Source: Chara braunii
Taxonomy: Eukaryota; Plantae; Charophyceae
DNA: 64,000 nt
Assembly (NCBI GenBank): GCA_003427395.1
Contig: BFEA01000027.1
Coordinates: forward strand, 2,024,015 to 2,088,014
Direction of reading: 5' to 3'
Below are positions 5,704 through 51,540 of the stretch, piece after piece (positions within the stretch are counted from its first letter, which is position 1; each line of letters starts with the position of its first letter). Under the pieces are notes generated by a model, which was given only the letters and a program-made list of their open reading frames with translations, was not told the origin of the DNA and searched no databases. Position numbers and translations under genes: made by a program.

Positions 5704-5804
5704 GACGTCCTCGACGAGCGAGTATTGGGATTTGAAGGGGGAAAATTTTGCAAAAGATGTACGACTCCTAATCTCTACCCATCAACCCAAGATCATCCTC
5801 TTTG

Positions 5805-11916: not shown

Positions 11917-11925
11917 ATTTTTTTC

Positions 11926-12948: not shown

Positions 12949-12980
12949 CAGTTACTGCTCCCGGTATTATTGAGTTCGTT

Positions 12981-13409
12981 TTATGCCCTCTTCACTTTCC
13001 ATACGAGGTCTATTACGGCCGACCATTCATTGTTAGCGAGCGTAAGCCCTTCAACTGTTGGTGACGGTATTCCAATGAAAGGCCTAACGTAGGTACTCTA
13101 CGAGAAATTCGTCCTTAATTGTTGGAGTCTTCTCTTCTTGTCATGCACTATGTTCGAGGCCCGTTGCCAACAACGACCTTTTTCGTCTTCCTTAAACCTA
13201 TGTTGCGGCACGTATATTCCCACATTATACTCATCAAGGTTGATGAAGGACTAGGTGATGACATACATACCATCAATCCTCCATCCCTGACTTTTTAGAC
13301 CTTCGTATCTCACGATCTCATATGGGATCACTGCTCTCTTCGATATAGAGTTAAGGGAACGGACCAACTTCCTCGACTTCCCCTCATCTAGTTTCCTACA
13401 CCTCCTCAT
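12981..13409 (-). pseudogene. Accessory ORF G, unknown (family alpha), 142 codons with two internal TAG
   Basis: Manual translation ...IPYEIVRYE...MYVIT*SFINLDEYNVGIYVP...GRCWQRA...; aligns along its length with ORF E. Absent from the ORF track. Confidence 0.75.
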
Positions 13410-13487
13410 CCTTGGTGAAGTCCCCTAGCATGGCTTCTAATTCTGCTCTTGGTCTTGGAAGCGTTCTCTTTCTTGGTCTTCTTTGCA

Positions 13488-13817
13488 CTACTCCTCCACT
13501 GCCCTCACGACTCCAATCAATTTTCCTCTGTCGTCTTTTATCTCGTGCTCACCTTCTACTCCGAACAGGCCTGTGTCAAGGTAGAGTTCCCCTTCTTGAT
13601 CTCGTAGGCAAGAGGCTCCTCTCTTAATCTCTATCAACCCTGTTTCATTAGATCGAACTCTCCTACAGATCGTCGTGCCTAGAGTATACAAGTCCTCCTG
13701 GGTCCATTCTGTCAAAAGTCTGAGCAACTCTTGGGATCTCCACCTATCATGATCACGCTGTCTTAGTTCATTTGATATATCCCCTCCAAGCTGCCTATTC
13801 TCGTTCCCTCTGGTCAT
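13488..13817 (-). CDS. Accessory ORF F, unknown (109 aa; may read through to ~13395)
   Basis: ATG start overlapping the end of ORF E by 23 nt. Confidence 0.55.
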   Translation of the reverse strand: MTRGNENRQLGGDISNELRQRDHDRWRSQELLRLLTEWTQEDLYTLGTTICRRVRSNETGLIEIKRGASCLRDQEGELYLDTGLFGVEGEHEIKDDRGKLIGVVRAVEE

Positions 13818-14307
13818 TCGGGTTATGGTGTCGGTTTATGAAATCAATTATTAAACCTCGACCGATCCCTGTCAATGCTTCGTAAGGAATCCGCGGCCTA
13901 GACAAGTCTTCAAAGATCCTGATTTCGGTACTCCAAGCGACTTCTTTCTTTAAGGAAAGGAGTCTATCCTTCTCGTCCTCCACCACTTCTCTCGCTCTTT
14001 GTCAGCAACGTCCATACGCTAAATCGTCCGATCTTTTCGTTGGTAGGTAAATGCCTACGTCTCTTACCTCAGTCCCTAGGAAGCGCGCGGTCATAACATA
14101 GAGGCGGCTCAGTTCCCATGCGATGTCGACCATCTCATAGGCTTCCACTTCATACGGAAACTCCTCCCTTCTTCCTAGGGTACTCAAGGATGCACACACC
14201 GCATCAAACTTCTCTTGTGGCGGTCGGTTCCCAGCGATGATCTTATTATCCCACTCTTCGAGTTTCTCTGCAGACTTCTTATGCCTTACTCGTTCATGAC
14301 CCAGCAT
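13795..14307 (-). pseudogene. Accessory ORF E, unknown (family alpha), 170 codons with one internal TGA
   Basis: Track ORFs 14002..14331 and 13795..13986 are in frame. GRC*QRA matches GRCWQRA in ORF G. Confidence 0.75.
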
Positions 14308-14324
14308 TCTTTTGCCACGCTTGC

Positions 14325-14594
14325 CTAACACAACCGGGCTCGTTCCCTAACCAGACAATAGTATCTTTTTTCAGAGGTCTTTAGTCTTTCTACCTTCAGT
14401 AGATAACTGATCTCGGTTTGGTTGGTAATTACCCTCAAAGCCGACTCCCTCATACGATCGAAATAAGGTTGTATGAGTTGAAGTTCTTCAAACCCAAAGA
14501 GATCTATATCAGGAATTCGGAGGGTGCCCTCAACTTTTACCATTCTCTCTTCCGCGATAGCCCTGAAGGAGAATTGTTCCCTAAGACCCGGCAT
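14325..14594 (-). CDS. Accessory ORF D, unknown (family beta), 89 aa
   Basis: ATG 1 nt after the ORF C stop (TAGGATG); similar to ORF I. Confidence 0.65.
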   Translation of the reverse strand: MPGLREQFSFRAIAEERMVKVEGTLRIPDIDLFGFEELQLIQPYFDRMRESALRVITNQTEISYLLKVERLKTSEKRYYCLVRERARLC

Positions 14595-14595
14595 C

Positions 14596-15015
14596 CTACT
14601 GACCCCAACTCCTTGCTCTGAGCGTCATATTAATTAAAGGCTCCCAGTTCTTGTCGTCTGTAAAACTGTTAGGTAGACTAGGTTCTGGAACCCCATAGAA
14701 TAGAACCGGTGATGAGTCACTGATTACTTTCTCTCCTCTCCTTTCTAATTCCTTCCTTTCCTGGCTGATGACGGTTTTAATTCAGTTTCTAAACGACGCT
14801 CGTTCAGTTCCCCTCTCACTCAATAGGGGTATATAGGGTCTAATGTCGTATTCCCCTGTATCAAGGTGTTTTACCACAAGGACATGGGCTTTCCCAGGAG
14901 CGTGGCGTTCCTCCATTGATATACAGCTTTCTATTTTGTAAGGAAACGCCCCCCCACTAGTAATAGGGACTAAGGTGTCTAGGGCCGTTGTGACCCTAGG
15001 GCAATAACCTGACAT
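14596..15015 (-). pseudogene. Accessory ORF C, unknown (family alpha), 139 codons with one internal TGA
   Basis: GGAFPYKIES...HVLVVKHLDTGEYDIRPYIP; reads in frame past 14782 to the TAG at 14596; homolog at 59004-59345. Confidence 0.75.
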
Positions 15016-15082
15016 TTTCGATTCGCTATCCTTTTATCGTTACTCTTCTGCGCGTTCGTCCTCACAGGCAGCTTCACCGAGG

Positions 15083-16210
15083 TCACTCTAGGCTCATCCG
15101 GACACCCAGTCGTGACCATCGTCCCTCGACATATTCTTCTATTTCGGTAGCGCTCCTGAAGTACCCCACCCTTTCCTCAAGAAAAGTTGCGACGTCTTCC
15201 CACTCTTCACGGTCGTCGTCCCTTAATCGTTCCCACTCGGCTAGATCCCAATCTTCTTCCCCATAGTATATGTCCTCATCGTTTACTGCCTCTGTCCCTT
15301 CGTAGTATGTCCGGAGTTCGTAGAACCCAATGAGTGAACCTTCCCTAACCGACGAGTCGTATCCAGGAGTCCCGTATAACTCGGCTATACCAGCTAGGTG
15401 GCTCGGCGGCTCCCTCAGGGCTCTATCCAAAGCGGTCCAGAATTCGGCCGATTGATCAAACCTCAGTGCCTCTCTAAGATCTCTAGGTGAAATAGCTCTA
15501 ATTAGCTCTACCAATTCCAAAGTCGACTCCCCGAACCTAGGCCCTTCCTTCCAGAGCGTGTAGTAGGCGTGATCTTCGTCACTGCTCCTCAAAAGGTTTC
15601 TAATCTCGAGGAAAGCTCGGTAGACCTCAATAAGGCGGCCAAGTCCCCCTAGAAATCCTTCCAAGACGAAACCCGGGACGGGCAGCCTCAAAGTTTGTTC
15701 GGGTTGGGGCAAGAACCCTTCTCTAGCCAGTCGAAGCGAGACCACTACCGACCTATAGTCCCTGTCGTAGCAGCGTTCCTTCCCCCTTAGCTTGTCGACC
15801 ACTTCCTGCAGTATGCGTCGCGTTGTTACCTCGTCTGCCCAGGTATGAGAGTCGAGACTCGGAATTACCCCTAAAACCTGATCCCAGCGACTTCGTTGTA
15901 CAGCTTGGAAAACTATGTCCGCTAGAACGGAAGACTGATAGTAGAGGAAGCCTCTGACCGCTAATTCCAGGGATTCTTTTATAAGCCCGCCTCTCCTGTC
16001 GAACTCACACCCTACCTGGGGCGCGACCAGCAACCAGACCCCCGACCTCAACAGGATAGATCTTCACTCCTTATCTACTTTATCCAGATATCCTCACCTA
16101 ACAGCTTGCCCAGGCAAGGTAAATTCCACCCAATCTTCTCCAATGAACTCGGGTTCCCTATAGTCGAAGTGACAAAGCTCAACTGGGTGCTCTATCTCGT
16201 CGTGAGGCAT
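15083..16210 (-). pseudogene. Accessory ORF B, unknown, ~375 aa with acidic C-terminus; two early TGA
   Basis: ATG directly follows the ORF A stop (TAGATG); in frame with the 322-aa track ORF 15083..16051. Confidence 0.7.
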
Positions 16211-16918
16211 CTAGTCGTCCACGGAGCTCCCGTCTAAAATCCGGCCCCTGTTTATCTCCCCACTTGTCTCCGCTCTCCTTACCTCGTCTCTGACCCTAAA
16301 CACGATTCTGCGCAACTGTCTACGCGTGGGAATTGCTCGGTCTAGACAGTAGGTAAGTAACCAGGCTCGCTCGACGGTAGTTATCCTGAACTGCGTCGCC
16401 CTCTGCACTACAGCTCGTAGCCTCTGATGTCTCACCTCATCGCCAAAGACTACTTCTGTGAGGAATCTAGGAACGATAACCGCTCTCACAGACGTAGCTC
16501 TAGGCAGCTCCCAGTCGTACGCAAAATGCACCGTGTAGAAGGCTACCGAGTCGGCTTCACTCCTCTTCACAAACTCACTGAACACTCTCGCACCGAATCT
16601 ACATGCTAATGATGTCAGGCATAAGAGAGTGTGACAATGACGGGCAGTCTCTATCACTAGATACCTCCACTCCTGGTCTGAGAGATATAATCTAACATTC
16701 ACTTCTGCGCGAAGGGGTTCGCTAGCCCTGTCCCTTCTAACACACACTCTAGGCTCCGCCTCAATTCTCACCCACAGGAAGACGCCCTCGCGTATGACTA
16801 GACCTCGTTGTACGGACGACCTATACTTGCTCGATCCTTCCAAAGGAAGACTAATGATGTCACAGAAGCCGCTACGTTCAACGAGATGTATTCGAGACTC
16901 CGATTCGATGTAAACCAT
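16211..16918 (-). CDS. Accessory ORF A, unknown, 235 aa intact
   Basis: Open frame with its ATG 2 nt downstream of a strong 3' splice site (TTTTTTATTTTGCTTAG|GAATG). Confidence 0.75.
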   Translation of the reverse strand: MVYIESESRIHLVERSGFCDIISLPLEGSSKYRSSVQRGLVIREGVFLWVRIEAEPRVCVRRDRASEPLRAEVNVRLYLSDQEWRYLVIETARHCHTLLCLTSLACRFGARVFSEFVKRSEADSVAFYTVHFAYDWELPRATSVRAVIVPRFLTEVVFGDEVRHQRLRAVVQRATQFRITTVERAWLLTYCLDRAIPTRRQLRRIVFRVRDEVRRAETSGEINRGRILDGSSVDD

Positions 16919-17219
16919 TCCTAAGCAAAATAAAAAATGGTTCTCTCTCAGTATGTCACTCCCTGTGCCACTCTCAGACTGTTGAGCTCAAAGACCCCCA
17001 CGACAGGCCTCCTCTGATCACCCCTGTATCCCTTCAAGACGTCAACAGGCCTACAAGAGAACCGCCCTCTGGCGTATCTCTTCCTACCCTCGTGTCAAGA
17101 AGGAGGTCGGATCAATGTGCCATCGTCGCTGGCCTACCTTCCCTGTCGCAACCTGAGCACGAGCCGGCCAACTCATGTGCTCTAGGGTGGACCGAAGTCA
17201 CACGCGAATAGGGAGGCGG

Positions 17220-20200
17220 TGTCTCACTCGCGGGAGGGTCGGTCAGGGCTCCTGTAACCTGCACAAAACAAGTCAGTCCACATCAACAAATACAAGTACC
17301 GTAGCCGACCATGACCAATGCAATAAGAAACTCACGAAACACTGTCTGGCAGAAATAACAGAAGTAGTTTCATTCAATCCAAACCAATAGGATGGGAAAC
17401 ACTCGTCCCGGCCTCAGCCGTACACCTCGCTCCTGTGTCTGGAAAGTCTGTCTAAGTCCCTAGTCAACAAACGTCGTCTAATCCTCCTCCCGATTGGGTG
17501 ACGCCTGTAACGTGCTCGTCGATCCCAAAGAATAGTGCTCGAACTCTCAGTGTCGGAAGTAGCCTCCCTCGCCTATCGAGGCCAAAGCTCCAGATCCACC
17601 GTGACCATAGTTCGGGTGTGCCCCCTCGGAAGGCCTGCTTCACGAAAGTACCCGCTCGAGAAGCCCCCTTCGGACGTACCCCTTCGGAAAGCCCTTTTCA
17701 CGAAAGTACCCCCTCGAGAAGCCCTCTTCGGACGTACCCCTTCGGAAAGCCCGCTTCATGAAAGTACCTCTTCGGGATATTATCCCCCCCTCAGTAAAAT
17801 GCGGCGAAAGTGTCCGTCTGGTAAAGTACCTGTCTGGTAAGTGTGTCCGCTCAGTAAAAATGGCCGCTCGGTAAAACGTCTATTCGGTAAAACACCCTCT
17901 TCGGTAAATGTGTCCCTTCACTAAAATACCCTTCCGTCGAGTGTCCCTCCGGTAGCGTACCCGTTCGGGAAGACAGCCCCCTCCGTCGAGTGTCCCCGTC
18001 GAGTGTCCCTCAGGTAACGTACCCGTTCGGGAAGAAAGCCCCCTCCGTTGAGTGTCCCCGTCGAGTGTCCCTCAGGTAGCGTACCCATTCGGGTAAAAGC
18101 CCCCTCCGTCGACTGCTCCCGTCAAGTGTCCCTCTCGTAGCGTACTCGTTCGGGTAAAAAAAACCCTCCGTCGAGTGTTCCGGTCGAGTGTCCCTCCGGT
18201 AGCGTACCCGCTCGGGTAAAAAAAGTCCCCTCCGTCGAGCCTGGTTCGGATAGCGTCCCTTCACGGGGCCATACTTAGTCTGGTTCTAGTCGATGTCCCA
18301 AAAGCCCTGTCTCGTTCCATGTCCCGATCCGCGCCCGATGGCCCCGGTCCGGTCCGATCTGGTGATCTGCTCCCCATAACCTGGTTCGGCGAGATGGCCG
18401 ATCTGTGCCCCGTAGCCCGGTTCTATTCAGAGACCCAAAGCCGCGTCCAAAGATGCCACCTTGCGTGGTGCCCGGACGTTCCAGCTGCTTCCCTGTTCGT
18501 ATGCCCACAAGCACGGGGTGGCCATGCTCAGTTGCGTGTTCGTGGGCGCATGAGTGCGCGGTAGGCGCTCGTAGTCGAAGGTAGCAAGCACCTCTAGGCC
18601 ACTCTCCTCCTCCATACACTGATGCGCGCCGATGCGCGTAGAATCCCCTCCCCCGTGGCTCTCTCTCTCTCTCCAGCACGCTGATGTGCGCTGGGTCCCC
18701 GCTGCTCTCTCTCTCCAGTGAAGTGATGCGCGCGGACGCACGCAGGCTCCCCGCGCTCTCTCTCTCGAGTGAACTGATGCGCGCGGATGCGCGCAGGATT
18801 CCCGCGCTCTCTCTCTCCAGTAAACTGATGCGCGCGGATGCGCGCAGGATTCCCCTCCCCGAATCCGCTAGTGCGCGAGAGGCCACGCTGCCTGTCCGCT
18901 AGTGTGTGAGTGCTTCCGCCCTCGGTCCGTGAGTGCGCGTGTCGCCCCGCTGCCTGTCCGCAGGTGCGCGGGTGCGCCCTCCCCTAATCCGCTAGTGCGC
19001 GGATGGCCGCGCTGCCAATCTCCAAGTTCGCGGGTGCTCCCGCCCTCGGTCCGTGAGTGCGCGGGTGATCGCACAGCGTGTCCGCAGGTGCGCGAGTGCC
19101 CCCGCCCCGAGTTCACTAGATCGCGGGTGACCGCGCTGCGTGTCCGCAGGTGCGCGGGTGCTCCAGCCCCGGGTTCGCTAGTGCGCAGGTGACCGCGCCG
19201 TGTGTCCGCAGGTGCACGGGTGCTCCCGCCCCGAGTCCGCTAGTGCGCGGGTGACCGCCCTGCGTTTCCGCAGGTGCGTGGGTGCGCACGCACAGGTGCG
19301 TGAGCTGCGCGCCCGATCCGATGGTGCGCGCGTGCGCGCGCGCAGGTGCGTGAGCTGCGCGCCCGATCCGATAGTGCCCGAGTGCGCGGGCGGGGTTGCG
19401 CGCGGCTGCGCGCACGTGCGCCCTTTCCCGACTGTGAGCGGCGAGGTTGCGCGCACATGCGCCCGATCCCAACTGTGCGCAGGCGGGGCTCCGCGCGGCT
19501 GCGCGCACGTGCGCCCGATCCCGACTGTGTGCGGACGGGCAGCCGCGCCCGTGCGCCCGTGCGTGACTATCCACCTGTGTTACCTGGTTCTCCCCGTTCT
19601 TCGTGCGTGGTGCTCCCTCTCTCCTCCGTGCGCCTCCAACTCGTGCATGCGAGAAGTGTCCTGTGCCTGGGCCCGGTTTGGCTTATATGCTCTGTCGGGC
19701 CCTTCTCGGAGTGCAAGCCTTGGTCCTCGTGTGCTCTGTGGCAGCCGACAACTTGCAGCGCCCGGTACCGGGCCTGTGCCTGAGCCTGATTGGGCCTTCG
19801 AAAAGTTCCAGGCGAAAAGGGCCTTCCCATCGGGAACTGGGCCCTTTGCAGCGCCCTGGTACCGCAGCTGTTCCCGAGCCTGTCCCAGGCCTGCCCGGGC
19901 CTATGCGGTTCCCACATAGCAGCGGTGCCGCTCTTAGGGAAAATCCAGGCTGGGCCCCGTAAGTAAAAAAAAAAAAAACGGTCTCGAATCAATTGGGCCG
20001 AGGCGGACCCCTCGCCCTAGCGGAACCGCCCCTTCAAAGGAAAATCCAACCAGCCGAGTGGCCCCCTCGCCCGTGGCGCCCGCCTGCGTCATGGTCGGTG
20101 AACCCCGGCTAGGTAAAGTAGCCCCCTTGATTGTACCATCCGTCTGCCTCGGTGTCGGCGAGTCCTGACCACGCAAAATAACGCCAAAGAGAAATGTCAC

Positions 20201-20386
20201 CATTCTGCCCCTTCGGAGTGTCGTCTCGTCGCACGATCAGTAAACAGTGGTGACCTTGATGGTCATGGTGTTGGTCTGCCTCATGGTCGGTGAACCCCGG
20301 CCAGATAGAATACTGTCGAGTGGAGTTGTTGTCGCGTGCCATCTGAAAGGAAGTAAAGGGCGGCGTAATATTGTAGCCGCCCGACA
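17220..20386 (-). repeat. 5' LTR of the Gypsy element
   Basis: Colinear with 2473-5680; starts TGTCGG on the minus strand; differs by substitutions and repeat copy number. Confidence 0.9.
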
Positions 20387-25413: not shown

Positions 25414-27280
25414 CTTTTTTTTTTCTTCTTTTTTTTCTTTTTTTTTTTCTTTTTTTTTTTCTTTTTTTTTTTCTCAAACAGCCCCAGAGTCAGCCTGAGA
25501 TGCTGGTACGAGTTGTCACTTCAAGCTGGTCCGAGGGAGGCTCCATCTATTGGTGGGGAGCAGCGCCTGATGGGAACCGGGCCCAGCGTGCCATCCATCA
25601 AATGTCACAGGAAACACAGTAATTGTGCATATGTGCTGCCTGTTACAGGCGTACATTCTCCATTGTGTAGTGTATATAGTTTGTATGTGTCAATCTATAT
25701 GATTAAGCAGATTAGTGGTGACGATGGTTGCATTAAGCAGCATTAGATATACTGTACTAGTTCCTAAGTCCAAGTGTTTGTGGTACTGTATTTCTGTATT
25801 TCTGCTGTATTTCTGTCTTACCTCCCACCATTTGAGTGCTGGCTTATGACCTGTTTATGTTTCTAAAAGAGGATGCGATGCATCATCTGTCAGTACTTAT
25901 TTCTGAGGACTAGCGTTAAGCAGCGGTTGTCTATGCTATATTAAGTCCCAACTACTGATGCAGCTTCTGGGGGGAGGGGGGAGGGTGGGGAAGAGCGAGG
26001 AGCGAAAGGACAGATGAGGGGGAATGAAGGGGAGGAGGGGAGGGGGGTGGTTGGTGGGAAGGTGCAGGGTGTAGGGGGGAGGGGGGTTACATTACTTAAG
26101 ACAACAGAAGACAGTTAGTCATAAACGAGGACAAAGTTTGTCGGTTGATGGACAACTTGAAAGTGATGTGTTGGCAATCTTTTCCAGAGCCTCTCAGAGA
26201 GAAGCCAGGGATGCCATGTAAGGGTGTTTTCGTCGTTGAGACTACAAAGTCTCTGTTTTGGGTCAGTCCATGTCTCCGTGAAACTATTTCATAGTTTTTG
26301 ACATTTCTCACTGTCTGACTCGGTACGCATTTTGTCGTGCAGCTTTTTCCATACTGCCTGCGTAAGCTGAGATCGTGTCAATTATCGTTGAACGGGCTTG
26401 CATGAAACCGAAATTATGCTGTTTTCTTTCATAGGAGCAGCGCATCCTCCAGGCTGCCATGAGCACGGTTAGCCTGGAGTAAGTGAAGAGATTGGTCATG
26501 AATGGTGACCAATCTCCAACCTCCATCGGAGGGGCTCCTAGAAGGAGGGTGGACAATTCCCAGGGGAGGTGGTGATCTGTAAGATAGTGCCACTCTGCGT
26601 CCCACCACCTCCACAGTTGGAGCACCATGGGGCAATCCAACAAACAATGCTCCAGAGTAGCTCTCCTGTTGGGATATGAGTTGGAGCAATACGAACACAG
26701 TGGGGAGAGCAACCCTTTTTCCTCCAGGTCAGTCCGTGATGTGATCCAATCCGGGGTAGGCAGGAATCTATGTATGATTTGCCATTGCAGGGCTCTATGG
26801 CTAGTCGGTCGAATGTGTGAGACTGCAGACCACCAAAACTGCCTGAATTCCTGTGGCTCCAATGGGGAATCCCTCTCCCAACGCTTGGTCATTTGGTCAG
26901 AGATCCCGAGTGGCTTTCGTGCTGCCCTATATCCCTTCTTCACCGTGTATTGCCACAAGGACGTTGTTTGAGATCCCCCCCATGTCCGCTCCCATTCTGC
27001 TGGGTTGAATGGGAGGTGGTGCAGCGGGGTGGAGGGTTCGTATTGAAAAAAAACGTTGTTTTGGTTCCCCACCACTCTAATTCTGGTGAGGGAGGACTTT
27101 GGTAGCTGTGTGTCAAACTCTTCCTGACGATGTACAGCTGACCATCTAGCCCCTGGCAAAGTACTCAGTCCTACTCAACATTTATTGCCCATTACGAGGC
27201 ATAACCCTGACTACCTGCAGTCTCTATTCCCTTCCCACTCCAACCTCTTCAACCCGCTAAATCCTAATAGAAAACAGAAT
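25414..27280 (-). mobile_element. 5'-truncated L1-like LINE (ORF2 C-terminus 26308-27159, 3' UTR, polyA)
   Basis: Zinc finger CSYC...TLEHCLLDC and WRWW motif; tail motif at 25535-25592; T-run at 25414-25472. Confidence 0.88.
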
Positions 27281-27775: not shown

Positions 27776-27914
27776 TTTTTTTTTTTTTTTTTTAATTAGG
27801 ACTTCCCCGGCTAGTGCTAAGGATGTTGATAAGAGCAAGCACCCCTAGCACCCCCGAGGAGGCTCCATCTATTGGTGGGGAGCAGCACCTGCTGGAAAAC
27901 GGGTCCAGCGTCCC
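27776..27914 (-). mobile_element. Short L1 3' tail with polyA
   Basis: T-run 27776-27793 plus the shared tail motif. Confidence 0.85.
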
Positions 27915-30410
27915 AGAACATTATATCATTTGGTGAACATCTGAAAGCAAGATATGGCTTGTTCGCAATCGACGACGTGGTTCCTTTCCGAGTAGGCGGA
28001 AGGGAGTATCGAATTCACACTGCACACAAAAACAGGCCGTGGTGCTTTAAATGCCAGGTGTATGGCCACCTTCCGTCCGATCCTGATTGTCCCCACCACC
28101 CGGCCAAACGGATCAGATCCACGGGGCAACTGTTACGAGACCCGTTTCAAGCAACACGATGGAGAACAGTCAACCCGGGGCATGAAGGATGGGTCTATGT
28201 GGACGAACCCCAGGAGGGAGGAGGGGTCAAGGAGTGGGAATGGGAGAAAAAGGAGGCGACAAATTTGGCCACTAAGCCACCAGAACAATGGATCCCTCCC
28301 CTGCCTGCGGAGGTTCAGATGGCAGGAAGTTCTAATCCAACCCCCCACTAAGCTCAAGATTTTGCGCCCTCACCAAACAGACGTATTATGGGATAAAGCC
28401 TACATCCACCTCTTCCCACTGCTGGACGAGAGCCCGGCCCTAAAACAGGTACTAGAACGAGGCTTACCTCCGGAAACCAGTTGGCAGCAAACCCTTCACA
28501 GGATATGGGGCATAGTACACGCGAATTTCCTCCCTCCAACTGCACCAAACACAGAACAATCACGAGCCCATGAACCCCCGAATTCCAAGAATCCCGAGGG
28601 AACTGCCGGGCCCTCGCCCCAGCCAGAAGCGGGACAGATTGGGCCGTCTCGGAGGGTCAAGCTGCGTCACCTAATAGAAACAGGACTGTACAGTGAAAAT
28701 CCTCGAAAACGTGACAAGGTGTTGGTGATTCCGCTCAGAAGGAAAGGGGGGAAGTGGGAACTTGATCTCTCACCGGCAGAATCTGAGGACCCATATACCT
28801 TGTCGTATGGAGGGGTCACAATGTTAGGGTGGGATCTGCAGAGGGAAGGAGCCTTAAAAATTCACAAAGTAAGACAATTTATCGCAAAACATTATGAACC
28901 GGGGCTACCGCAACCATCAGTGCGTCTTCGAATAACATAAAAATGGCCTATAAAGACCTGTATGTGAGGTTCGAGGACAGCAAGGATGCGGGCATGCAAT
29001 GGTACACACACACTGCCCTCCTGGATGCCCAACAACAGAAGGTGAGACCCAATCACATCTGGTCGACAGACGAACTTCTCACGCATTTGTGCACAATCCT
29101 GAGGAAAAACATCCTGGGGGGAGGAGTGGATTGGGAGGCGCACGAATGACAAAGACTATAATGACCCCGGGGGGAGACACAGTCACGTCAGGAAAGCCAC
29201 GCAACCAGTATGGATTGGGTTAACACCTTATGTGAGAAAAATGGGAGAGAACACTCCAACACGCCGATATGGATATCAGGTCTACCAATGTAAACAGTCT
29301 GGCATCCCGTTGCCCGAAAAAAAAACAGGCACTATGGGATCTTATGCGGGGGGTGGGAGGCAAGAGGTGGTCGGACATTGTGTGCATTCAAGAAACTCAC
29401 CTGATGGACCTCCCGGAACACCACAGGGCACGAAAACAGGTCTGGCCCTTTCACAACTACCAGGCCCATGCGCTTGGACCAGGGCGGGCGGGGGTAGCAA
29501 TCTGGATCCCCCCTGAGTCGCGGTTTGAAGTCCTCCATTGGGAAAATGATGAGGAGGATGGACGTTGGGTGTCAGTACTTGGTATGCTGAACCTAGAGGT
29601 GATCTGCATTGTATCCCTTTACGCCCCTAACTCCCCCCGCGCAAGGAGAGAATTCCTAGAAAAAATAAAGAGTATCCCTACCCCTGATACCCCTGATATT
29701 CCGGTGGTGCTTGCAGGGGATTTTAATACAGCACCTGACCGGGGATTGGACAGATGGAGAACCCAGCCGACCACGATCCATAACGGTGAAGAAGACGAAA
29801 AAATGTTAGGGGAGTTATGCTCCTCCCTCCAACTATTTGATACATTCCGATGTAGTTACCCTACCGAAAGAACCTTTACCTGCATTAGGAGCAATGACCC
29901 GGGTAGGCGCTCCTAGTCCCGGATCGATCAGATATTGGCCTCGGAGGACCTCCTGGCTGGATTGACAGTAACCGCAATACTACCAATGAGCCCATACCCC
30001 GGTCCAGATCATGGAATGTGCATGGCTATCTGGACTTTCCGCAAGCGTCCGGACCAAGGGATCAGCTATTATAAGTTTAACACTTCCCTACTTAAGCTGA
30101 AACCCTTCCGAAGCTATTTACGAAAAAACTGGGAATATTGGAAGGACGGACGCCATCATCACGACTCCCAAATTGCATGGTTCAACAATGGACTGTTATT
30201 TCTGGCAAGGAAAAGCAACGAGTTCTCTAAACATTTGGCCGCTCAACGACATTAACAAGAAATTTCGATAATGCGAGATCTGGAGGAACTAGAGCAGCAG
30301 GCAAATTTGCATGAACAGGAACATATAACCACGACACAAGAACTAAAAGAACGTAAAGAACTTAAAAAACAACTTTTGAACTTTGCAAGCCACCGATGGC
30401 TCCAATATGC
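27915..30410 (+). mobile_element. L1-like LINE 5' half: ORF1 (zinc knuckle, C-terminal domain) and ORF2 APE endonuclease
   Basis: WCFKCQVYGH..C knuckle; STNVNSL, CIQETHL, GVAI, YAP, GDFN, RID and DH endonuclease motifs (29269-30030). Confidence 0.9.
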
Positions 30411-30834: not shown

Positions 30835-31740
30835 TGTGGAGATGGTGGGATAGGATATGGGGTCAATTAGGTACATCCCACAATTGGCCATGTGACTGGA
30901 AGGAATTGTTATGTGAATCCTGAAACCCAGACCAATTAGACGATTTTACTCAAAACTTGTTTATTGTCGTACGTAGAGCACTTATGTGGGTCATTTGGCG
31001 TCAGAGATGCACCTATAAAATGGAGGGGCAAAACTGGATGGTCAGGAATTCATGGAATCTATCAAACAACAAATACACACAGAAATCACAGCGCAATGGG
31101 AAAAAGTAAAGGAGAGAGTCAAAATTTTATCATCCAGGACGGAAATTCTTCAGCATTTTCAAAACTTCAGTGGTGCTTGGCTAGGGGGTCTTCAAGGGGG
31201 GAAAATGGGAAGGATCATATGGAAGGGGGGCAAGGTTGATCAACAGGGAGAACGACAATAAATTAGAAGGGATCATTATCTCTGCTTCCATGATTGGACA
31301 AACGTTGACCCCTCTCTACCTCTGCGTCCTATGTCTGAATTCCCTGATCCTTTCCCACCTTCGTCAGTGTGTCTGGTCCCTCGAAGTTGGTATGGGTTGG
31401 ATTAAAAGGCCTTTTGTCCTAGTAGCAGGTTTTCCAAACTTCTTTTGTTGAAGACTAGTTGCTAGAATGTTATTGCTAGATCTGACGCTCGTCCAAATGG
31501 GTGAAGAGGCAGCTGCTCCAACACTAGATCAGGGAGGACATGAGGAATTCCCGACAAATGTTTTTCTGATAAGCTTCATATTCAAATTGTACATGGGACA
31601 CTGGACCCGTTTTCCAGCAGGTGATGGTCCCCACCAATAGATGGAGCCTCCCTCCAGGTGCTAGTGGTGTCTTCTCTCATCAGCACCTCTAACACTGGCG
31701 CAGGCGTTTTCTTAAAAAAAAAAAAAAAAAAAAAAAAAGA
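30835..31740 (+). mobile_element. L1 3' end (WRWWDRIW region to tail and polyA)
   Basis: Homologous to 40570-41130; tail motif at 31595-31650; polyA at 31714-31740. Confidence 0.85.
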
Positions 31741-35437: not shown

Positions 35438-35800
35438 ATTTTTTTTTATTTTTTATTTTTTTATGCAACGCCGGAGGTAGCTTGAGGCGCTGGTAGGAGC
35501 AGACGCCGCTAGCTATTCCTGGGGAGGCTCCATCTATTGGTGGGGAGCTGCACCTGCTGGGAAACGGGCCCAGCATCCCTTTCACATGTTGCAGAATTCA
35601 TATTCAGGGTTTCACTGGAGCATGCCGGGGGGCCACCTCTTCAGCCTGAAGATAGGCCGCCTAACTATTCATGAATTAACCAGCTGCTCCCCCTTGTGTC
35701 CACCCATGTGTTTGGGTGGTGCTGAGGTTGGCTGCATCCATCCTTCCTTCTCTTTTTGACACGTTTGACCTCTAAGAGTCTAAACCCTTAAAACACCAGT
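35438..35800 (-). mobile_element. LINE 3' UTR fragment with polyA
   Basis: T-rich run 35438-35462; tail motif at 35525-35580. Confidence 0.75.
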
Positions 35801-39000: not shown

Positions 39001-41727
39001 TGGAAACCACTAGAGGCCCCAATAAGAATTATGGGGGTATCCATGACCACTGAGGGACGACCGCCAATCAACGATGAATGGATTAGCACCCCGACCCAAC
39101 AAAAAGTAAATAACTGGAGGAACAAACACACATCCCTTTTCAGTCGAGCGCTGGTTATTAATAACGTGATTTTTGCATCCTTATGGTACAAATCCTTGTT
39201 GTGGTCACTGAGCAACGCAGCCGTGAGAAGCCTGAGGACAAAAGCAACAACGTTCATGTGGAGAGGGGATGGAGAGCAGACCAACGTAATAAGTCGTGTA
39301 GCTTGGGACTCAATTATCCAACCTAACGCAGGAGGAGGATTGAGAATAATTGACCCAGCCATACAGGTCCAAGCCCTTCGTATAAAATGGATTAAGAAGC
39401 TTATCTTCGCCCCCCATAACCCGTGGTCTATTTTAGCTTTGGAACATTTGGCTCGAATGACCCCGGAGGCCTCCCACAAGATTCACCCACTGACATGGTT
39501 GGAGGATCGCTTCTGGACAGTCCCACACAAATTCTCACAAGTTAGGAACAGGCCGGAAAGAGGGACTCAATCGATGGACACATTATGATCATCCTTGCTG
39601 CAGACCTGGCATCATCTCCCGCTCCCAGACAAGAACCACCCCAACCGTTGGGAGGAGGTCCACCGACAACCTCTCTTTGGGAACAGATGGATAACGGATA
39701 CAAGGGGCTGCGTCATGAAGAGCTCAGCCCTGCCCTGGAAAAGTTGGGTTAGACATGGCATCCTTAGGGTAGGGGATCTCTGGGACCGTGACAGACACGA
39801 TTGGAAAACAAAGGAACAGATGCGAACATTCTTAAAGTACTGCCACCGTGTGGAAGAACTCTTTGAGAATCTAATTGAAGCCATCCCACTGGAATGGTAC
39901 CGAATTCTCAAACATGGCCCTACCTTGAGAATAAGGGATTGGGTGGCATGCACAGGGCCCCCGTTAAGGATCGGCCAGATTCACATGGTCTCACCTCAAC
40001 TAGTCCTGGTTGAACATCACACCATCACCAAAAAGGGCACCCTCCAAGGGAGTAGGACAAAGGGTGGCGTACCAGCCCGAAAAAGGGTGAGGGTCTTAGA
40101 AGAGAAAGGACAAAGGATGGCGTACCAGCCCAAAAAAAAAATCCAGGACCTGGTCTTTGATCCGGTGGAATGGACTTGGCTGCCTCCCCAAAAGAGGGGA
40201 ACCCCCAAGGTAAGTCATATTAGCCTACATCAATTAACGGTCAAATCGCCTATAAAATGCTCAAACCTAAGCGGTATCTAAATGATTTGATCAACGATAG
40301 ATGGGCCACGCAGCTGAATGTGGACCGATCTCTCTTATCGCCAATCCAATGGTTCAGGGAACAAAAATCCAGGCCCATGAAAATCACCTCCCTTCAGTGG
40401 CAAATAGCACACCGATGTCAGCCAACAAATGATTGGTTGGCTCACTGCACAACCCTCGAACAGAGAGGAATGTTGCTCCTTTGGTGTCAACGGTGCCAAA
40501 GTCTCTTCCCCCCCCACAAAATGGCGGAGACCATTGAGCACATCTTTATGCAATGTCCAATTGCTCAATTCATATGGAGATGGTGGGACCGTATATGACG
40601 GAAGATGAAACCAGACATTCCCTGGCCCTGGTCATGGCAGGCCATATTAGCTGGGCATTGGCCGCGGGTAGAAACAACCTTGACTTTCGTACGGAATATG
40701 TACAGACTGGGAAGGAGAGTAGTGATTTGGGCTCTTTGGTGGCAGAGGTGCACCTTGGCCATGGAAAGGGTGCGGGTGGAAGGGGCGGAAGTTCTAGAAC
40801 AGATTCAGCAACAGATTCATCTTGAGCTTACTTAGAGATGGTTAGACACAATATCCCAATTAAACGTTTTCAAACAAATTGGAGACGTCAGGAGACAAAT
40901 TACGACTTTTGCACAGACTGGGTGGGGGGAGAAAGAAAAGGGTGGATTGCAAAAATTGAATGGAGTGGGGACAGGGGAGTAGGGTCGTATGATTTGGAGC
41001 AAATAAGAAACTATCGTCTAATTTTTAAGGACTGGACTAACATAGAGCCCTCCTCCCCTTTACGCCCTCCCTCGGATTTTCCGGACCCCTTTCCTCCTCA
41101 TGCCCTGTCTCTAACAGAGATTCTGTCTTGAGCATAATACTTTCCTTTGCAAACCTCGCACACTTTCACAAAGTGGAACACCTCCCTAGAGCCCCCTGGG
41201 GAGGACCCCGCCAATGCTTTTTTCTATTCTACTTTCTGTTGAGGTAGTCAATGTAGTCAATGCTGACCTTTTGAGTATTCTAGAAACAACTGAGCATGAG
41301 GGTTCTGTATGCAACTGAGCATGGTTTTGGAGTGTGACTCCCCTGATTAGTATCATTCCCTAGTATCAATCATAAGCGGTCTATCTGACGCCCTTTTATG
41401 AGGATGAAGAGCTACAAAAAGGGATTGGCTGCCCTACATGCTCACACAAGGCTACTTTACGGGATATTACACAGGATCTGCTCAGTCAATCCCCTGGGTT
41501 TCAGGGCAATCAATGCTGGCAGACTCCATAGCCACTATTCTCGTAGGGTCTGCTCAGTCAATCCCCTGTTGTGCAGGGTAATCAATGCTGGCAAGCCTCA
41601 CACTGTTTTCACCTTCTCAAGATGTTTTTCTTTCAAGGGACGCTGGACCCGTTTTCCAGCAGGTGACGCTCCCCACTAATAGATGGAGCCTCTCCCCAGG
41701 TGTTAGTGGTGTCTGCTCTTACCAGCA
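36010..41727 (+). mobile_element. Near-complete decayed L1-like LINE (ORF1 3' part, ORF2 EN-RT-Zn finger, 3' UTR)
   Basis: EN motifs TINVNGL/CLHETHL/WDFN; RT motifs NYRPITLL, DFEKAYD, RQGDP (the FADD segment appears deleted near 38840); CQRC...ETIEHIFMQC; tail motifs at 41482-41727. Confidence 0.92.
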
Positions 41728-43489
41728 NNNNNNNNNNNNNNNNNNNNNNNNNNNNNNNNNNNNNNNNNNNNNNNNNNNNNNNNNNNNNNNNNNNNNNNNN
41801 NNNNNNNNNNNNNNNNNNNNNNNNNNNNNNNNNNNNNNNNNNNNNNNNNNNNNNNNNNNNNNNNNNNNNNNNNNNNNNNNNNNNNNNNNNNNNNNNNNNN
41901 NNNNNNNNNNNNNNNNNNNNNNNNNNNNNNNNNNNNNNNNNNNNNNNNNNNNNNNNNNNNNNNNNNNNNNNNNNNNNNNNNNNNNNNNNNNNNNNNNNNN
42001 NNNNNNNNNNNNNNNNNNNNNNNNNNNNNNNNNNNNNNNNNNNNNNNNNNNNNNNNNNNNNNNNNNNNNNNNNNNNNNNNNNNNNNNNNNNNNNNNNNNN
42101 NNNNNNNNNNNNNNNNNNNNNNNNNNNNNNNNNNNNNNNNNNNNNNNNNNNNNNNNNNNNNNNNNNNNNNNNNNNNNNNNNNNNNNNNNNNNNNNNNNNN
42201 NNNNNNNNNNNNNNNNNNNNNNNNNNNNNNNNNNNNNNNNNNNNNNNNNNNNNNNNNNNNNNNNNNNNNNNNNNNNNNNNNNNNNNNNNNNNNNNNNNNN
42301 NNNNNNNNNNNNNNNNNNNNNNNNNNNNNNNNNNNNNNNNNNNNNNNNNNNNNNNNNTTTTTAAAGCCCTTGTGCAAGGCCTCTATCCCGGTGGTGGTAA
42401 GAGAACCTCCGGAATTGAGGCTTTGCCTAACAGGCTGCTCCATCTATTGGTGGGGAGCATCACCTGCTGGAAACCGGGCCCAACGTCCCTTTCATACATC
42501 TTCTCTTTTCTGTGAAGGAAGAATCAGTACCAAACTTCGCCAATGTAGAGAATATATTCCTGCCAGCATTGATTACCCTGGATTCCAGGGGATTGACTGA
42601 GCAGTACAGGAGGCATCTAGGAGGAAAAACAGGGGAAGGGAAGCCTCTTTAGTCCATGAGGACCGCGATAGATCCTTTCAACAAAGCTATCCTGTCCCTG
42701 CGTGTTAGCCTTGATTAACCTTTCTCAAAGGCTCCCCATACCTTACCATTGCATTTCTACCATAGCAAGCTCAGACGGAGGGAAAGGGTCTGAAAAACAA
42801 ATCGGAGATCTGAGAAAGGCTCCTGGATGAAGTTAGGACCAATCTCGAAAGATGAGATGGAAGTCTTTTTTTAGTGACACTCCTATCTCTTCTTCCCCTG
42901 GCCATTTCACCTCACCCAAGCCCCTCCCTGCAGCACCCCCCAGCCAGTCCAGGTTAAATTTTTGAATAATTTGTTGAAGGTTTTGCAGCTTAGCTTTAAT
43001 TGTCGTCCACTTTGCTCCGATTTGCGTTTGTATCATACTTGCAAGCGCACATCGTGCGCAAGTTTCCCGACGTTCCGCGCACGCGCCTAACCATTCCCGC
43101 GAGGAGCACGAGGTGTGCGGGGAACGGCCCGAACACACCCCCCTCCCCCCCGAAAAAAGAAGGCAGGGGTCGAAACGGCACATTGGAGCCCCCCCGCCAA
43201 AATTGATGCCAAGGCCAAAAAAAAAATTTTTAGGCCCGCGCTCAAGGCCGGACCTCGAGGTTTCAAATTTTCAAAACTTGTTTGTACTGTGTGGGTGGGC
43301 TTGGTTGGGCCTCTTGCGTTGGTTTCTGGTCGGCCACGACCATCCCTGCTAGGAGTGTCGTTGCCATTTCAAGGAGGAGCTACCGCCGTTCTCAAGTGTC
43401 GCCCCGTGCTGAAGTGCAGCCATGCTGCCGTGCTGCCTTATGAGGGAGGAGCTGCCACCATTGCCCGGTGAGAATCACCAGCCTCGACC

Positions 43490-44050
43490 TCCCCTTCATC
43501 CTCCTCACTGCCTCCTCTACATGCTTCTCCTCTCCTCTCGCTCGTCCTCCTCCTCCTCCCCTACCTCGTTGCCCTCTTCCTTCTCCTCATCCTCCTCCTT
43601 CTCCTCCTCCTCCTCCTCCTCCTCCTCTTCCTCGTCGCCCTCGTTGCCCTCCTCCTCCTCCTCCTCCTNNNNNNNNNNNNNNNNNNNNNNNNNNTCATCG
43701 CCCTCGTCGCCCTCCTCCTCCTCCTCCTCCTCCTCCTCCTCCTCCTCCTGCTCTTGTTCCTCGTCACCCTCATCGTCCACGTCCTCCTCCTCTCCCACCC
43801 AGGTAACAAATCTATCGAGCCCTTGTCCAACTCCTCCGGACCCCCTCCCGCTCGTCCTCCTCCTCCTCCCCTTCCTCGTCGCCCTCGCCGCCCTCATCGC
43901 CCTCCTCCTCCTCCTCCTCCTCCTTCTCCTCCTCCTCCCCTTCCTCATTCCCTTGTCGCCCTCCTCCTCCTCCTCCTTCTCCTCCTCCTCCTCCTCCTCC
44001 CCTTCCTCGTCGCCCTCGTCGCCCTCCTCCTCCAGGTCGTCCTCCTCTCC
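43490..44050. repeat. (TCC)n low-complexity tract
   Basis: Direct reading. Confidence 0.9.
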
Positions 44051-44092
44051 CACCCAGGTAACGAAACTATCGAGCTTCGTTTTTTTTTCCCA

Positions 44093-44553
44093 ACCTTTTC
44101 TCGATTAAATTTTGTGTGTGTCATCCTTGCGCAGAGGTCGTGCTAATCTTGTTCCCAAAGTCACGAAACGGAGGAGGATTGGGAACGATACAGAGAAGAT
44201 TAGCACGACCTCTGCGTCCACCTCGTCCTCCCCCTCTCTCACCTAGGTATCGAAATTTCAAAAATAATCCGATCTATTGAGTTCTTTTTTTTCTTTTTTT
44301 TTTGACCTTTTCTCGAATCATGTGTCATCCTTGCGTCAAGGTCATGGTAATCATCTGTGTGTTGTTCTCATTGCAACGGATGTCCTGAAGGAGCCTGTTT
44401 TTTGTTTTTTTACCTTTTTCTCGATTTTTGTTTGTCATCCTTGCACAGGGGTTATGCTGATCTATTGGGGCCTGTAGGGCTTGATGCGCAGGGGCCGTTA
44501 GGGCTTGATGTACAAGGCACTTTAAGGGGTCATGCTAATCTCCTCGCTATATC
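44093..44553. pseudogene. U6: Cluster of U6 snRNA-derived fragments (five minus, one plus)
   Basis: 44178-44216(+) GGAACGATACAGAGAAGATTAGCACGACCTCTGCG; minus copies at 44093-44158, 44301-44367 and 44412-44463 carry GCAAGGATGACA...TCGAGAAA; short pieces at 44485-44496 and 44525-44553. Confidence 0.88.
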
Positions 44554-44649
44554 CCCTCCGCTGGAAAACGTTGGAAATACCGCTCGTTTTTTTTTTTTCC
44601 GTTGTTTCCTGTTCCTGGACTCGGTGCTCGCCATATCCCAGTCTCCCCG

Positions 44650-45175
44650 CCATATCCCCACCTTCATCTCTCCTCCATGCCTCCACCTTCGTCCTCCACC
44701 TGTCCATCTTTCCTCCAGCTCTCCTCCATCTGTTCTCCATATACTCCACCTTCACCTCTCCATGCCTCCATGTTTGTCCACTTGTCCATCTTTCCTGCAT
44801 CTCTCCTCCATCTGTCCTTAATATACCCTCCACCTTCTTCTTTTCTCCATGCCTCCACCTTTGTCCTCCACCTGTCCATCTTTCCTCCATCTCTCCACCT
44901 TCATTTCTCCTCCATGCCTCCACCTTCATCTCTCCTCCATGCCTCCACCAGATGCAACATCATCTTTCCTCCATACCTCCGCCTTTCTCCTCCATGTCCA
45001 TCTCTCCTCCACCTCCCGGACCGTATCTCGCCCTCTCCCCTCCATCTCTCTTTCATATCCCCATCTCCCTCTCATATCCCCTCCACCTTCATTTCTCCTC
45101 CATTCACCACCTTTCTTTTCCATCTCTCCATCTCTCCTCCATATCTCCTGCATTTGGCGTGCATCTCTCCTCCAA
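44650..45175. repeat. Pyrimidine-rich minisatellite (CTCCTCCATGCCTCCACCTTC units)
   Basis: Direct reading. Confidence 0.85.
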
Positions 45176-47451
45176 CTGATTTCAAGGCAGACAACATAAC
45201 CCCTTTTGTTTTTTTTTCTTCGTTTCTATTATATTATTAATTATTTCTATAACCGTTCACTTGATTTGAAGGCAGACTTCCGAAGACAGCGACTGCTGAC
45301 AACTGTTTTTTTTTTTAGTTCGTCCTGTCTGGCCAGCCGTGTTGAAAAGGGGCGGTGGTTGTGGAGGAGTCTACGGCAGGAGGGCGGAGGACACAGAGTC
45401 TGGTGTGGGTGAATTACGGATGTAATTGGGACTATGGCTGATTTGATGGTCCTGACCATTTTTTATGTGTGCAGGTCACAACGACGAGCAACAAGTTCGC
45501 CGCCGACATGGTCAAGGAGAGATTTGATCAAGGAGCAGCACGTTCGGACCCCTCAGACCCCCTTTAAAAAAAAAAAAAAAAAAAAAGTCTCGCACGGCTT
45601 TGCACGGTGCGGTACACGTAGCGCACGTCCCCGCACATTTCTGCACCCGCACAGCCACCCCCCGCACGGATCTGGTCTGTGTGGGTGCAGAATGTGCGGA
45701 GATCGAGCACCTCCCGCACGCCGTACTTCACACCGCACCGCACGAATGTGCGGCTCATGCGGTTGCAAGTATGGTTTGTATAAATCGAACAATAAGATCT
45801 AGTATCTCAGGGCCATCTAGGCTCACCTTCTCATGTTCTCTAACACGCCTTTTATACCATAACACCCATAATATTGCTTTATGGCCAATTTCAAAAAGAT
45901 TATTTTGAAAACTGAAAATTTGATATAGTGAGATCTAGGGGTTTCCAATACCCCAGTAAAATGGTCCTCCAATCCCAGGGCCAGTTTATACCTGTTAGGT
46001 CTCTCCAAGTACAATCTCATCTTCTCCATAAATGGACTGAACCCGGACATTGCAAGATTTGGGATAGGTAGTTGATGATAATAAGCATGTCACCCCTCAG
46101 TATGAGAGACAAAGAAAACTCTAATACGATAAATATAGGTGGCCAAAAAAAAAATTACCTTGTTTGAAGGGGAGGGTGATATAAGATGTTCCTTGTTGAT
46201 TTTGACCAGGCCTACCATAGCTTCTTGTGGAGTAAGATGAATCACTTGTCCCACCATCTGTTGCCCATTAGGCTGGACTCCTATCACCCAATCTCCCTCC
46301 TTGATTTTTTACCCTTTTTTCAAAATTTGTACCCAAGCTAAGGGGATGGAAAAAATAATCTGATCTAGATTTGAAGATAGGTGATGGGCATATCTCAATG
46401 TAGATCTCAGTTGATCAACGGTCTTCCAATCTTTGGTTTCTGAATTCCATAAATCTTTAATTCTGAGTACCCCCCTTTTGACCCACAAGGACCAGGGTGG
46501 AACTGAACTATTAAAAATGCAGCTATTTAAGTCTGTAATCCATCTGTTGCCAAAAAGAGGCTGCCTAAGTATCTCCTCACATCGAGAAGGAAAGGGCCTA
46601 TTTGGCAATGAAAGACATCTCCATATTTTCAACAAGGAAGTCCACATATTATCCAAGCTAAGATCAACTTTGGCGGCCCCGCGCACCCCCTCTTCTCTGG
46701 AATGCGTCCTGGGAATGGTCCAATAACAATCTTCAATCCAAGTGAGGGGGTGTATATCATCTGGACATGAAGGACCTAACCAACGAATTTGTTCACATAC
46801 TAGCACTTGTCAGGGTTTGTCAGTAGACAATATTATTTTTTTTATCCTTTGCAATGATAAAGCCTGATAGTGAAGAGTTGGATCCAGGATCCTCAATCCT
46901 CCTCTCGTCCTTGGTTAGACTAGGGAGAGCCAGACTACTCTTGGAATCACCTTGTCCTGTTCATGATCACCTCTCCATAAGAATGCTGACACTTGTCTTC
47001 GTAAAGTTTTCGTACGCTCTTTGTTGATCGACCAACGTGTTGATTTGTACCGTATTGAGGCAAGGACAACATTGTTAATTATAAGTGCACGCCCAAAAAT
47101 TGAGATATGTAACATTAAACGGTTACAAATTTCAGGAATACCAGAGGAAGCAACTCCTATTACCTCTATGTTTGCAGATGATCTCACTGTTACGATGGAG
47201 GCATCAAAATCGAACATGAAGGAGATTCAGGCTATGATAGAAAAAAATTCTCAGATATCTGACATGGTGGTTAATTGGGGAAGTGAAACACAAGGCTGGT
47301 GGATTCATTCTAATGGGGTACGTCCTCCGGAACACCCTAAAGTTGGTTGGGTTCCCTTGAATGCTCCGGTGCAAATTTTGGGAGTTTCTCTTACAGCAAA
47401 TGGTAAAACAACTACTAATGATGATTGTATCTCCAAACCAGCTCTGGAAAA

Positions 47452-47673
47452 AACGTCCACCCGGTCTTTCGTTGTTCAAAGTTGGCTCTTTTTGTTTCGG
47501 CAGAATGCGCCGAGTTTCCCGGGCGACGATCGCAAGACCCACGCTCCATGGACAGTTTTCAGGAGGTTAGCGACATCATCTCGCAGCGGCGCTACAGCAC
47601 CAAGCCGACGGAGTACTTAGTACACTTTTCCTATTGTAGCCATAAGGCTGACCGTTGGTTGACCCGTGCTGAG
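47452..47673 (+). mobile_element. Chromoviral Gypsy integrase C-terminus/chromodomain relic
   Basis: VHPVFRCSKL (end of GPY/F module) followed by EVSDIISQRRY...EYLVHF...DRW. Confidence 0.75.
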
Positions 47674-51221: not shown

Positions 51222-51227
51222 TCTTCT

Positions 51228-51272
<45 letters not shown>

Positions 51273-51540
51273 TTCGCATGTGGGAAAACCTACTTAACGA
51301 GGTGATAAGAACAGCCCCGGTAAGTAGGCCCCTGCGGCGAAGGCTCCATCTATTGGTGGGGAGCTGCACCTGCTGGTAATCGGGTCCAGCGTCCCTGTAC
51401 TAGATATGATGTGTATCAGCTGGAAATCGGGTCCAGCGTCCCTAATCAGTGATATGAGGAAATATCATTCTACCGTGATACGAAGCCCTAACACTGATGT
51501 GATGTGTACGAGCTGGAATTCAGGACCAGCCTCCCTATTA
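51222..51540 (-). mobile_element. LINE 3' tail insertion with long polyA and three hairpin copies
   Basis: T-run to 51269; motif at 51341-51395 plus partial copies at 51417-51443 and 51511-51536. Confidence 0.8.

Follow-up and report, generated by a model that had tools for sequence, protein, structure and literature searches.

How did several fragments of U6 small nuclear RNA (snRNA) come to lie together inside a DNA transposon? The question is raised by a 64,000-nucleotide stretch of the charophyte alga Chara braunii (GenBank assembly GCA_003427395.1, contig BFEA01000027.1, positions 2,024,015 to 2,088,014, forward strand), hereafter the window, in which a non-coding, non-autonomous element of 2.74 kb with terminal inverted repeats (TIRs) occupies positions 43034-45773 and carries five pieces of U6 and one 12-nt U6 word (Table 1). 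We consider it probable that an A-tailed U6 retrocopy came to lie in a TIR element, was duplicated in place, and has since been passive cargo during transposition. A preliminary description of the locus had offered passive capture plus slippage as one possibility. This fits, and can be refined in that a retrocopy with an A-tail seems to have been the source.

U6 pieces and the element that carries them

The Rfam U6 model (gathering score 44) was searched over the whole window, and four of the five Rfam matches at E<=1 are U6, every one within the element: 44295-44393 (minus strand, 38 bits), 44090-44153 (minus, 33.4), 44151-44217 (plus, 32.5) and 44403-44464 (minus, 30.5). Their E values range from 6e-6 to 1e-3 and all four lie under the gathering score, in agreement with the diverged U6 content first reported for the locus. 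Alignments between pieces of the window revealed the 26-nt piece E, which an Rfam scan of 44440-44620 did not report. Weak Rfam matches (MIR840, RUF6-5, MIR6020, and others; E 0.33 or more) were set aside as chance, and the 5' stem given to the plus-strand match (44151-44177) as spurious, being the arm of piece B and the hairpin loop. The preliminary description had counted about six pieces, mostly antisense; the antisense majority on the plus strand holds (4/5 pieces, or 5/6 counting the 12-nt word), and the count becomes five pieces plus the word. Piece C is the only sense piece and the only one of the five with an intact ACAGAGA box.

A functional U6 gene was rejected, since the best score (38) is below 44, piece A is mutated in both boxes, its upstream region holds no TATA or USE-like motif (upstream sequence element), and none of the U6 pieces has a T-run terminator, an A-run standing where a gene would have its T-run. 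A bacterial promoter scan, with a bacterial model that does not fit the host, likewise found nothing. Pieces A, B, and D consist of U6 sequence with an A-rich 3' tail and without an RNA polymerase III terminator, which is the mark of a retropseudogene.

The two TIRs are complementary at 15/16 positions and are bracketed by an 8-bp target-site duplication (TSD), GTTTGTAT, exact at both element ends. Among 36,439 identical 8-mer pairs lying 0.2-15 kb apart in the window, two flank an inverted repeat in which no more than 3 of 16 positions mismatch; the second was discarded as an N-gap artefact, and the element is the only real pair. The word CGCAC, repeated beside both TIRs, is absent from the 2.3-kb interior and occurs 0.9 times per kb in sampled background. 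Eight-bp TSDs are also made by P-type elements, and these are the alternative to the hAT superfamily here. Non-autonomous hAT elements are described, in the available text of the sources, as having 8-bp TSDs and TIRs of 10-25 bp (PMC3942097), and short subterminal repeats as a hAT feature (PMC3260210). All of these were found, together with dispersed copies of the right end, and the superfamily is likely hAT; "hAT-like" is the safe label, because the structural features fit and a transposase was not found. Thus the non-autonomous TIR element with a perfect 8-bp TSD stands as first described, and its assignment to hAT stands as a structural fit beside the P-type alternative.

The present copy sits in another mobile sequence. 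When the element and one TSD were excised in silico, an open frame ran across the junction and aligned with another long interspersed nuclear element (LINE) of the window; the empty-site DNA alignment scored 271 against 100 shuffles (mean 121, maximum 145), and the protein alignment crosses the junction. Since frame and alignment are restored across the empty site, the element inserted into the 3' end of a decayed LINE open reading frame 2 (ORF2). The window carries many LINE pieces besides a Ty3-like element, and for one of its LINE peptides just one of 501 candidates proved homologous; it is named as a protein of Chara braunii and shows 75% identity across 44% of the query length. A LINE ORF2 stretch at 46967-47620 contains an internal inversion and aligns with another LINE on both strands.

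Within the 64 kb no further copy of the element was found, the TIR word being exact only at the two element ends and its 13 matches at <=2 mismatches comparing with 16 expected; a literature query with the TIR word found no transposon paper. The sole metagenome match to 21 nt of the right end (contig L001, 1-5560) was rejected, because its 25 matching nt are a coincidence within what looks like bacterial coding sequence and no U6 is present there.

Copies elsewhere in the genome and the origin of the pieces

Part of the stretch is contained in 10 of 24 listed sequencing runs, nine of these ten from one organism; none of them is recorded as RNA, which we do not treat as evidence. Reads or contigs of four runs were aligned to 44225-46000 at 80% likeness: a genomic run (X1), a probable RNA run (X5), a sediment metagenome (X10), and an oligo-dT run (X11). 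The genomic run, possibly the one from which the window derives, contains a contig exact to the window at depth 6.3. Two bases beyond piece D, at 44466, contigs that differ from the window number 10 and account for 226 of a summed depth of 232.5. Among 17 listed of 760 pieces, the boundary of D is bridged, with at least 46 nt on each side, by two diverged genomic contigs (12-14 differences) and by one X5 contig, which comes from a separate study; moreover, nine contigs hold the altered 3' end of D together with its spacer. Contigs diverging by about 10% would be paralogues rather than alleles. Because the junction between U6 and the DNA of the element recurs in diverged contigs, the cargo is not peculiar to this copy. 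A single insertion confined to this copy, together with a lack of transcription, had been named beforehand as the outcome that would overturn the idea, and such confinement was not seen, as 10 diverged contigs span the junction of U6 and non-U6 sequence.

The same contigs bear on whether the arrangement could be an assembly artefact, for which the N gap and simple repeats of the element would speak. Against it stand one contig that matches 44312-44491 without a single difference and the diverged paralogues, in which the order is retained. An artefact, or an element of the Dada-U6 type targeting U6 genes, is given next to no weight; U6 fragments do accompany the DNA transposon Dada-U6 (available text of PMC3706591), but the TIRs, the 8-bp TSD, and the LINE flanks found here do not fit it.

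At the right TIR, 14 contigs exit into unlike flanks and 14 diverge inward at 45738. Depth, which is not copy number, reaches 400-2000 over the right end, lies at 130-340 next to the U6 pieces, and falls to 18-33 across 45185-45364; it suggests that the U6 cargo belongs to one subfamily within a larger TIR family. The sediment metagenome contributed one 116-nt piece, uninformative on U6. Over the U6 core (44405-44464) the summed contig depth reaches 10,951 against 6.3 for the exact contig, again not a copy number, with A-rich tails on the loose ends. The genome appears to be rich in U6 retrocopies or genes, so that an insertion of U6 into a transposon is unsurprising, and the retrocopy set may be very large, an unusual thing to report for a charophyte alga.

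Within the element, changes shared by the pieces were called by eye in Rfam consensus numbering. G57A is present in 5/5 pieces, and U92A with a clip at about 95-97 followed by an A-run in 3/3 pieces that reach the 3' end. Pieces B and C are complementary at 21/21 positions, including substitutions absent from the consensus, and since C retains 9 nt missing from B, the fold-back preceded the deletion in B. Furthermore, the non-U6 flanks of A, of B, and the end of the U6-less unit 1 are homologous (scores 43, 45, and 94 against shuffle maxima of 27, 29, and 36); the spacer at 44219-44284 aligns with that at piece B with a score of 43 (300 shuffles: mean 17, maximum 27), and the CCT-rich units 1 and 2 are identical at 95/110 positions across their aligned ends. 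Among U6-like contigs from elsewhere, 35 leave at 44417 into an unclipped U6 3' end with A-rich sequence and 19 leave at 44451 with G56-G57 intact (consensus loose ends, 17 of 213 listed). Because these outside contigs keep G57, U92, and the unclipped 3' end, the shared changes look element-specific, and on sequence comparison the five pieces likely descend from one A-tailed U6 retrocopy, duplicated locally.

These observations also weigh against repeated, independent retro-insertions of a U6 variant or SINE-like (short interspersed nuclear element) master by a LINE favouring transposon T-runs. Such a course could draw on the abundant A-tailed U6-like contigs of the genome, on pieces that are just 77-84% alike, on the 12-nt word with its unchanged G57, and on the precedent of SINEU-3, which enters Mariner-N4 independently and in tandem (available text of PMC4494074). 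The homologous non-U6 flanks of A and B, the origin of C as a fold-back of B, and the intact G57 and 3' ends outside the element make it unlikely. We regard as slightly less probable still a capture at the DNA level of the Pack-TIR type, in which a segment with a U6 retrocopy and its flank was taken up by gap filling or fork switching and then rearranged. Capture by TIR elements including hAT is described (available text of PMC8903248 and PMC8277862), no clear TSD brackets the internal retrocopy, and the interior also has an unexplained exon-like stretch; on the other side, no donor locus was identified, although no search of the whole genome was made for one, and the outcome, passive cargo, would be the same.

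The history that we favour, an A-tailed retrocopy multiplied in place, would run as follows. In an ancestral copy of the element, a T-run would have received from a LINE reverse transcriptase a U6 that was slightly clipped at its 3' end and lay antisense to the plus strand; a U6 source is at hand, because the window is LINE-rich and the depth over the U6 core is high, with A-rich tails. The interior is rich in CCT and T, and either slippage or unequal exchange there may then have duplicated the retrocopy with its flank, giving the homologous A and B, and renewed tandem duplication may have given D, E, and the 24-mers, while a fold-back template switch would have generated the sense piece C from B before the 9-nt loss. 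A transposase encoded elsewhere, probably of hAT type, would have spread the U6-bearing version as one subfamily sharing the TIR, and the present copy inserted into the LINE ORF2, its pieces presumably decaying neutrally without effect on splicing.

Several points weigh against this history. The 12-nt word retains G57, pairwise identity is only 77-84% (A-B 41/49, A-D 37/48, B-D 43/51), and the pieces are scarcely closer to each other than to the consensus; common origin consequently depends on two or three shared changes, and the duplications must be old and their markers few. Pieces B and C and the left half of the element lie outside read and contig coverage. No contig joins a U6 piece to the TIR, for which reason we infer the spread by transposition, and the U6-bearing paralogues could in part be other duplications. 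An element copy lacking all U6 was not shown, two skipping joints of the genomic run having only 21 nt on the short side and not being counted. No transposase was found, the exon-like stretch of the element having no Pfam or protein match, and no clear TSD is recognisable around the founding retrocopy; piece A does lie between A-rich runs, which might represent either the remains of a TSD or D's tail.

As best explained, the locus joins two mobility systems in series, snRNA retroposition and then spread on a TIR transposon. It is also a warning that U6 annotations in this genome will be inflated by retrocopies and transposon cargo. For the biology of LINEs in the plant lineage, the abundance of U6-like copies with A-tails in a charophyte alga may be the more important observation.

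Splicing, transcription, and other features of the window

The preliminary description had suggested that the U6 pieces may be intronic, lying after repeated donor-like sites and before an acceptor. The sites exist (donor-like words at 43801 and 44056, an acceptor-like TGCAG ending at 45474), and the two donors are one duplicated word and so not independent; AGGTAA occurs 38 times in the window on both strands. The exon-like stretch after the acceptor (30-41 aa), possibly a relic exon, matched nothing in Pfam, and none of 8 candidate proteins reached E<=10, in a weak search that did not cover host genes. From 45412 to 45553, a segment with acceptor and exon-like stretch, there are 0 differences in X5 and 1 in the sediment metagenome, most paralogues being about 10% different.

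The raw oligo-dT run was sampled at 8.9 million reads, 6% of the run, from one condition, after poly(A) selection and with some U6-like reads filtered. In this sample 48 reads align, two at >=99% and 47 only partially, 85% continuing into unlike sequence, and in this weak sampling of 44225-46000 no spliced joint is listed. At 44354-44392 about 20 poly(A) reads, the main pile, come from another locus with unlike flanks, where a diverged U6 copy lies inside an unrelated transcript, mostly in one orientation. Two X5 contigs run unspliced across the acceptor at 45474. With no spliced joint in X11, unspliced X5 contigs, and duplicated donors, the proposal of an intronic antisense U6 is not borne out.

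An RNA able to pair with U6 was the other possibility raised. In a functional version of it, plus-strand transcripts with a U4-like antisense to U6 positions ~46-77 and a U6 hairpin would serve as a decoy or would yield small RNAs directed at U6-like sequences. Four of the five pieces are antisense on the plus strand, the cargo is retained in other copies, and B and C form a hairpin (about 30 bp, perfectly paired over a core of 21 bp) in both the minimum free energy and the centroid structure. Contigs of X5, whose RNA status is guessed, are about 90% alike and tile much of 44414-45714 at depth 5-41, so that a paralogue may be read through, which counts against purely passive cargo. Against an RNA function, the 501-nt fold is not unusual (z -1.26), perfect complementarity to the U6 consensus, by eye, extends over no more than 17 nt in B (where C already pairs in cis with a large part of it), 14 nt in A, and 12 nt in D, and the oligo-dT sample, a weak test, gave the few reads and the lack of a spliced joint described above. 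As the catalytic boxes have decayed and the single poly(A) run, itself weakly sampled, gave hardly any RNA matching the locus, pairing with U6 finds little favour, and we hold a functional anti-U6 RNA to be very improbable. Equally improbable in our judgement is that the subfamily kept and amplified the antisense-U6 cassette because its transcripts act on U6, as a U4-like decoy loosening splicing surveillance or as a small-RNA trigger against the many U6 retrocopies of the genome. Expression and conservation of the cassette would mean that a transposon RNA targets the spliceosome and, if it acted on U6, this would be the first mobile element with an RNA directed at the catalytic core.

Beyond the element, the window holds a Ty3-like long terminal repeat (LTR) retrotransposon of about 18 kb on the minus strand (2475-20386), with tandem-rich long LTRs ~85% identical, a broken gag-pol, and two extra frames (15083-16063 and 16211-16987) without a Pfam match. 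A dispersed repeat of 90-180 nt, with copies 75-88% alike and often beside A or T runs, is possibly a SINE or a LINE tail. Two long inverted-repeat pairs, 1016-1449/62803-63232 (70%) and 23100-23271/33382-33557 (85%), are possibly ends of other TIR elements.

Table 1. Features of the element, its host sequence, and dispersed repeats, in window coordinates.
Feature	Position	Strand	Basis or remark
Left TIR, 16 bp	43034-43049	+	Inverted-repeat search
Right TIR	45758-45773	-	Inverted-repeat search; contigs leaving into unlike flanks
Left 8-bp TSD	43026-43033	.	Identical to 45774-45781
Right 8-bp TSD	45774-45781	.	Identical to 43026-43033
Left subterminal CGCAC repeats	43045-43120	.	4 in first 200 bp
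Right subterminal CGCAC repeats	45591-45752	.	11 in last 200 bp
U6 piece B	44080-44158	-	Model ~29-97, 9 nt lost including ACAGAGA box; A-run; left fold-back arm
U6 piece C	44178-44217	+	Model ~29-65; right fold-back arm
U6 piece A	44285-44393	-	Near full length, 3'-clipped, then A-run; ACAGAGA box and AGC triad mutated
U6 piece D	44394-44463	-	Model 46-95, A-rich tail
12-nt U6 word	44485-44496	-	Consensus positions 56-67 (by eye)
U6 piece E	44525-44550	-	Model ~35-62; core 16/17 against consensus (by eye)
CCT-rich unit 1	43482-43820	+	Ends in donor-like word at 43801; no U6 after; N gap 43669-43694
CCT-rich unit 2	43835-44079	+	Duplicate of unit 1, in tandem; contains the donor-like word at 44056
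Third, shortened non-U6 spacer copy	44219-44284	+	Degenerate donor-like word; homologous to spacer beside piece B
24-nt tandem repeat	44467-44514	.	One unit contains the 12-nt U6 word
Pyrimidine-rich 11/25/90-nt tandem region	44631-45183	+	Varies between paralogues
Acceptor-like site, then 30-codon open stretch	45466-45567	+	Exon-like
Host: decayed LINE ORF2 3' end, split by element	42700-47109	-	LINE comparison, empty-site reconstruction
Dispersed repeat copies	251-349, 25452-25594, 27776-27915, 31592-31737, 35439-35581, 41551-41727, 51224-51413		

Comparison with known systems

The preliminary description had called multiple U6 copies inside a DNA transposon unexpected, which is overstated, since the literature has examples of retrocopies that sit inside DNA transposons and were amplified by them (PMC4224331). 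In the available text on bats, nested retrogenes amplified by Helitrons are LINE-made mRNA retrocopies, with TSDs and empty-site exemplars shown (PMC4224331). The likeness is that a LINE retrocopy lands in a DNA transposon and would be multiplied by its transposition; here, in contrast, the carrier is a TIR element, the U6 cargo is internally multiplied with a fold-back, and no empty exemplar is shown. The word "snRNA" has 0 occurrences in the bat Helitron text (PMC4224331), and 0 in the available part of a 2026 review of plant gene capture (PMC13317346).

U6 retropseudogenes with poly(A) tails or 3' truncation are described in mammals as dispersed single insertions with TSDs (available text of PMC4476161). 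The A-rich tail, the slight 3' clip, and the lack of a promoter are shared with the pieces studied here, whereas the present case concerns a charophyte alga and an array nested in a transposon, with a TSD that is not recognisable. Similarly, U1/U2-derived SINEU sequences occur in Mariner-N4_AMi, where independent insertion was concluded and hitch-hiking tested and rejected (available text of PMC4494074). Both cases have snRNA-derived sequence repeatedly within a non-autonomous DNA transposon, sometimes in tandem; the shared changes and flanks in the Chara element favour, in contrast, one insertion and hitch-hiking.

Among TIR elements, non-autonomous hAT and Pack-hAT elements resemble the present one in TIRs of 10-25 bp, the 8-bp TSD, a size of 2.5-5 kb, the lack of a transposase, and host sequence inside (available text of PMC3942097 and PMC8903248). 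Pack-TYPE elements are defined by captured coding DNA, and none was found here, the one 30-41-aa stretch having been given a weak search. Dada-U6 is likewise a DNA transposon associated with U6 fragments, whereas U6 here is cargo within a TIR element; identity with Dada was rejected, as elements of that type are without TIRs, generate TSDs of 6-7 bp, and target U6 itself, lying between two U6 halves (available text of PMC3706591), none of which fits. Searches of an open-access collection brought up no account of a TIR element that carries several copies of U6. In brief, each step has a precedent, and the combination is U6 as the multi-copy cargo of a TIR element.

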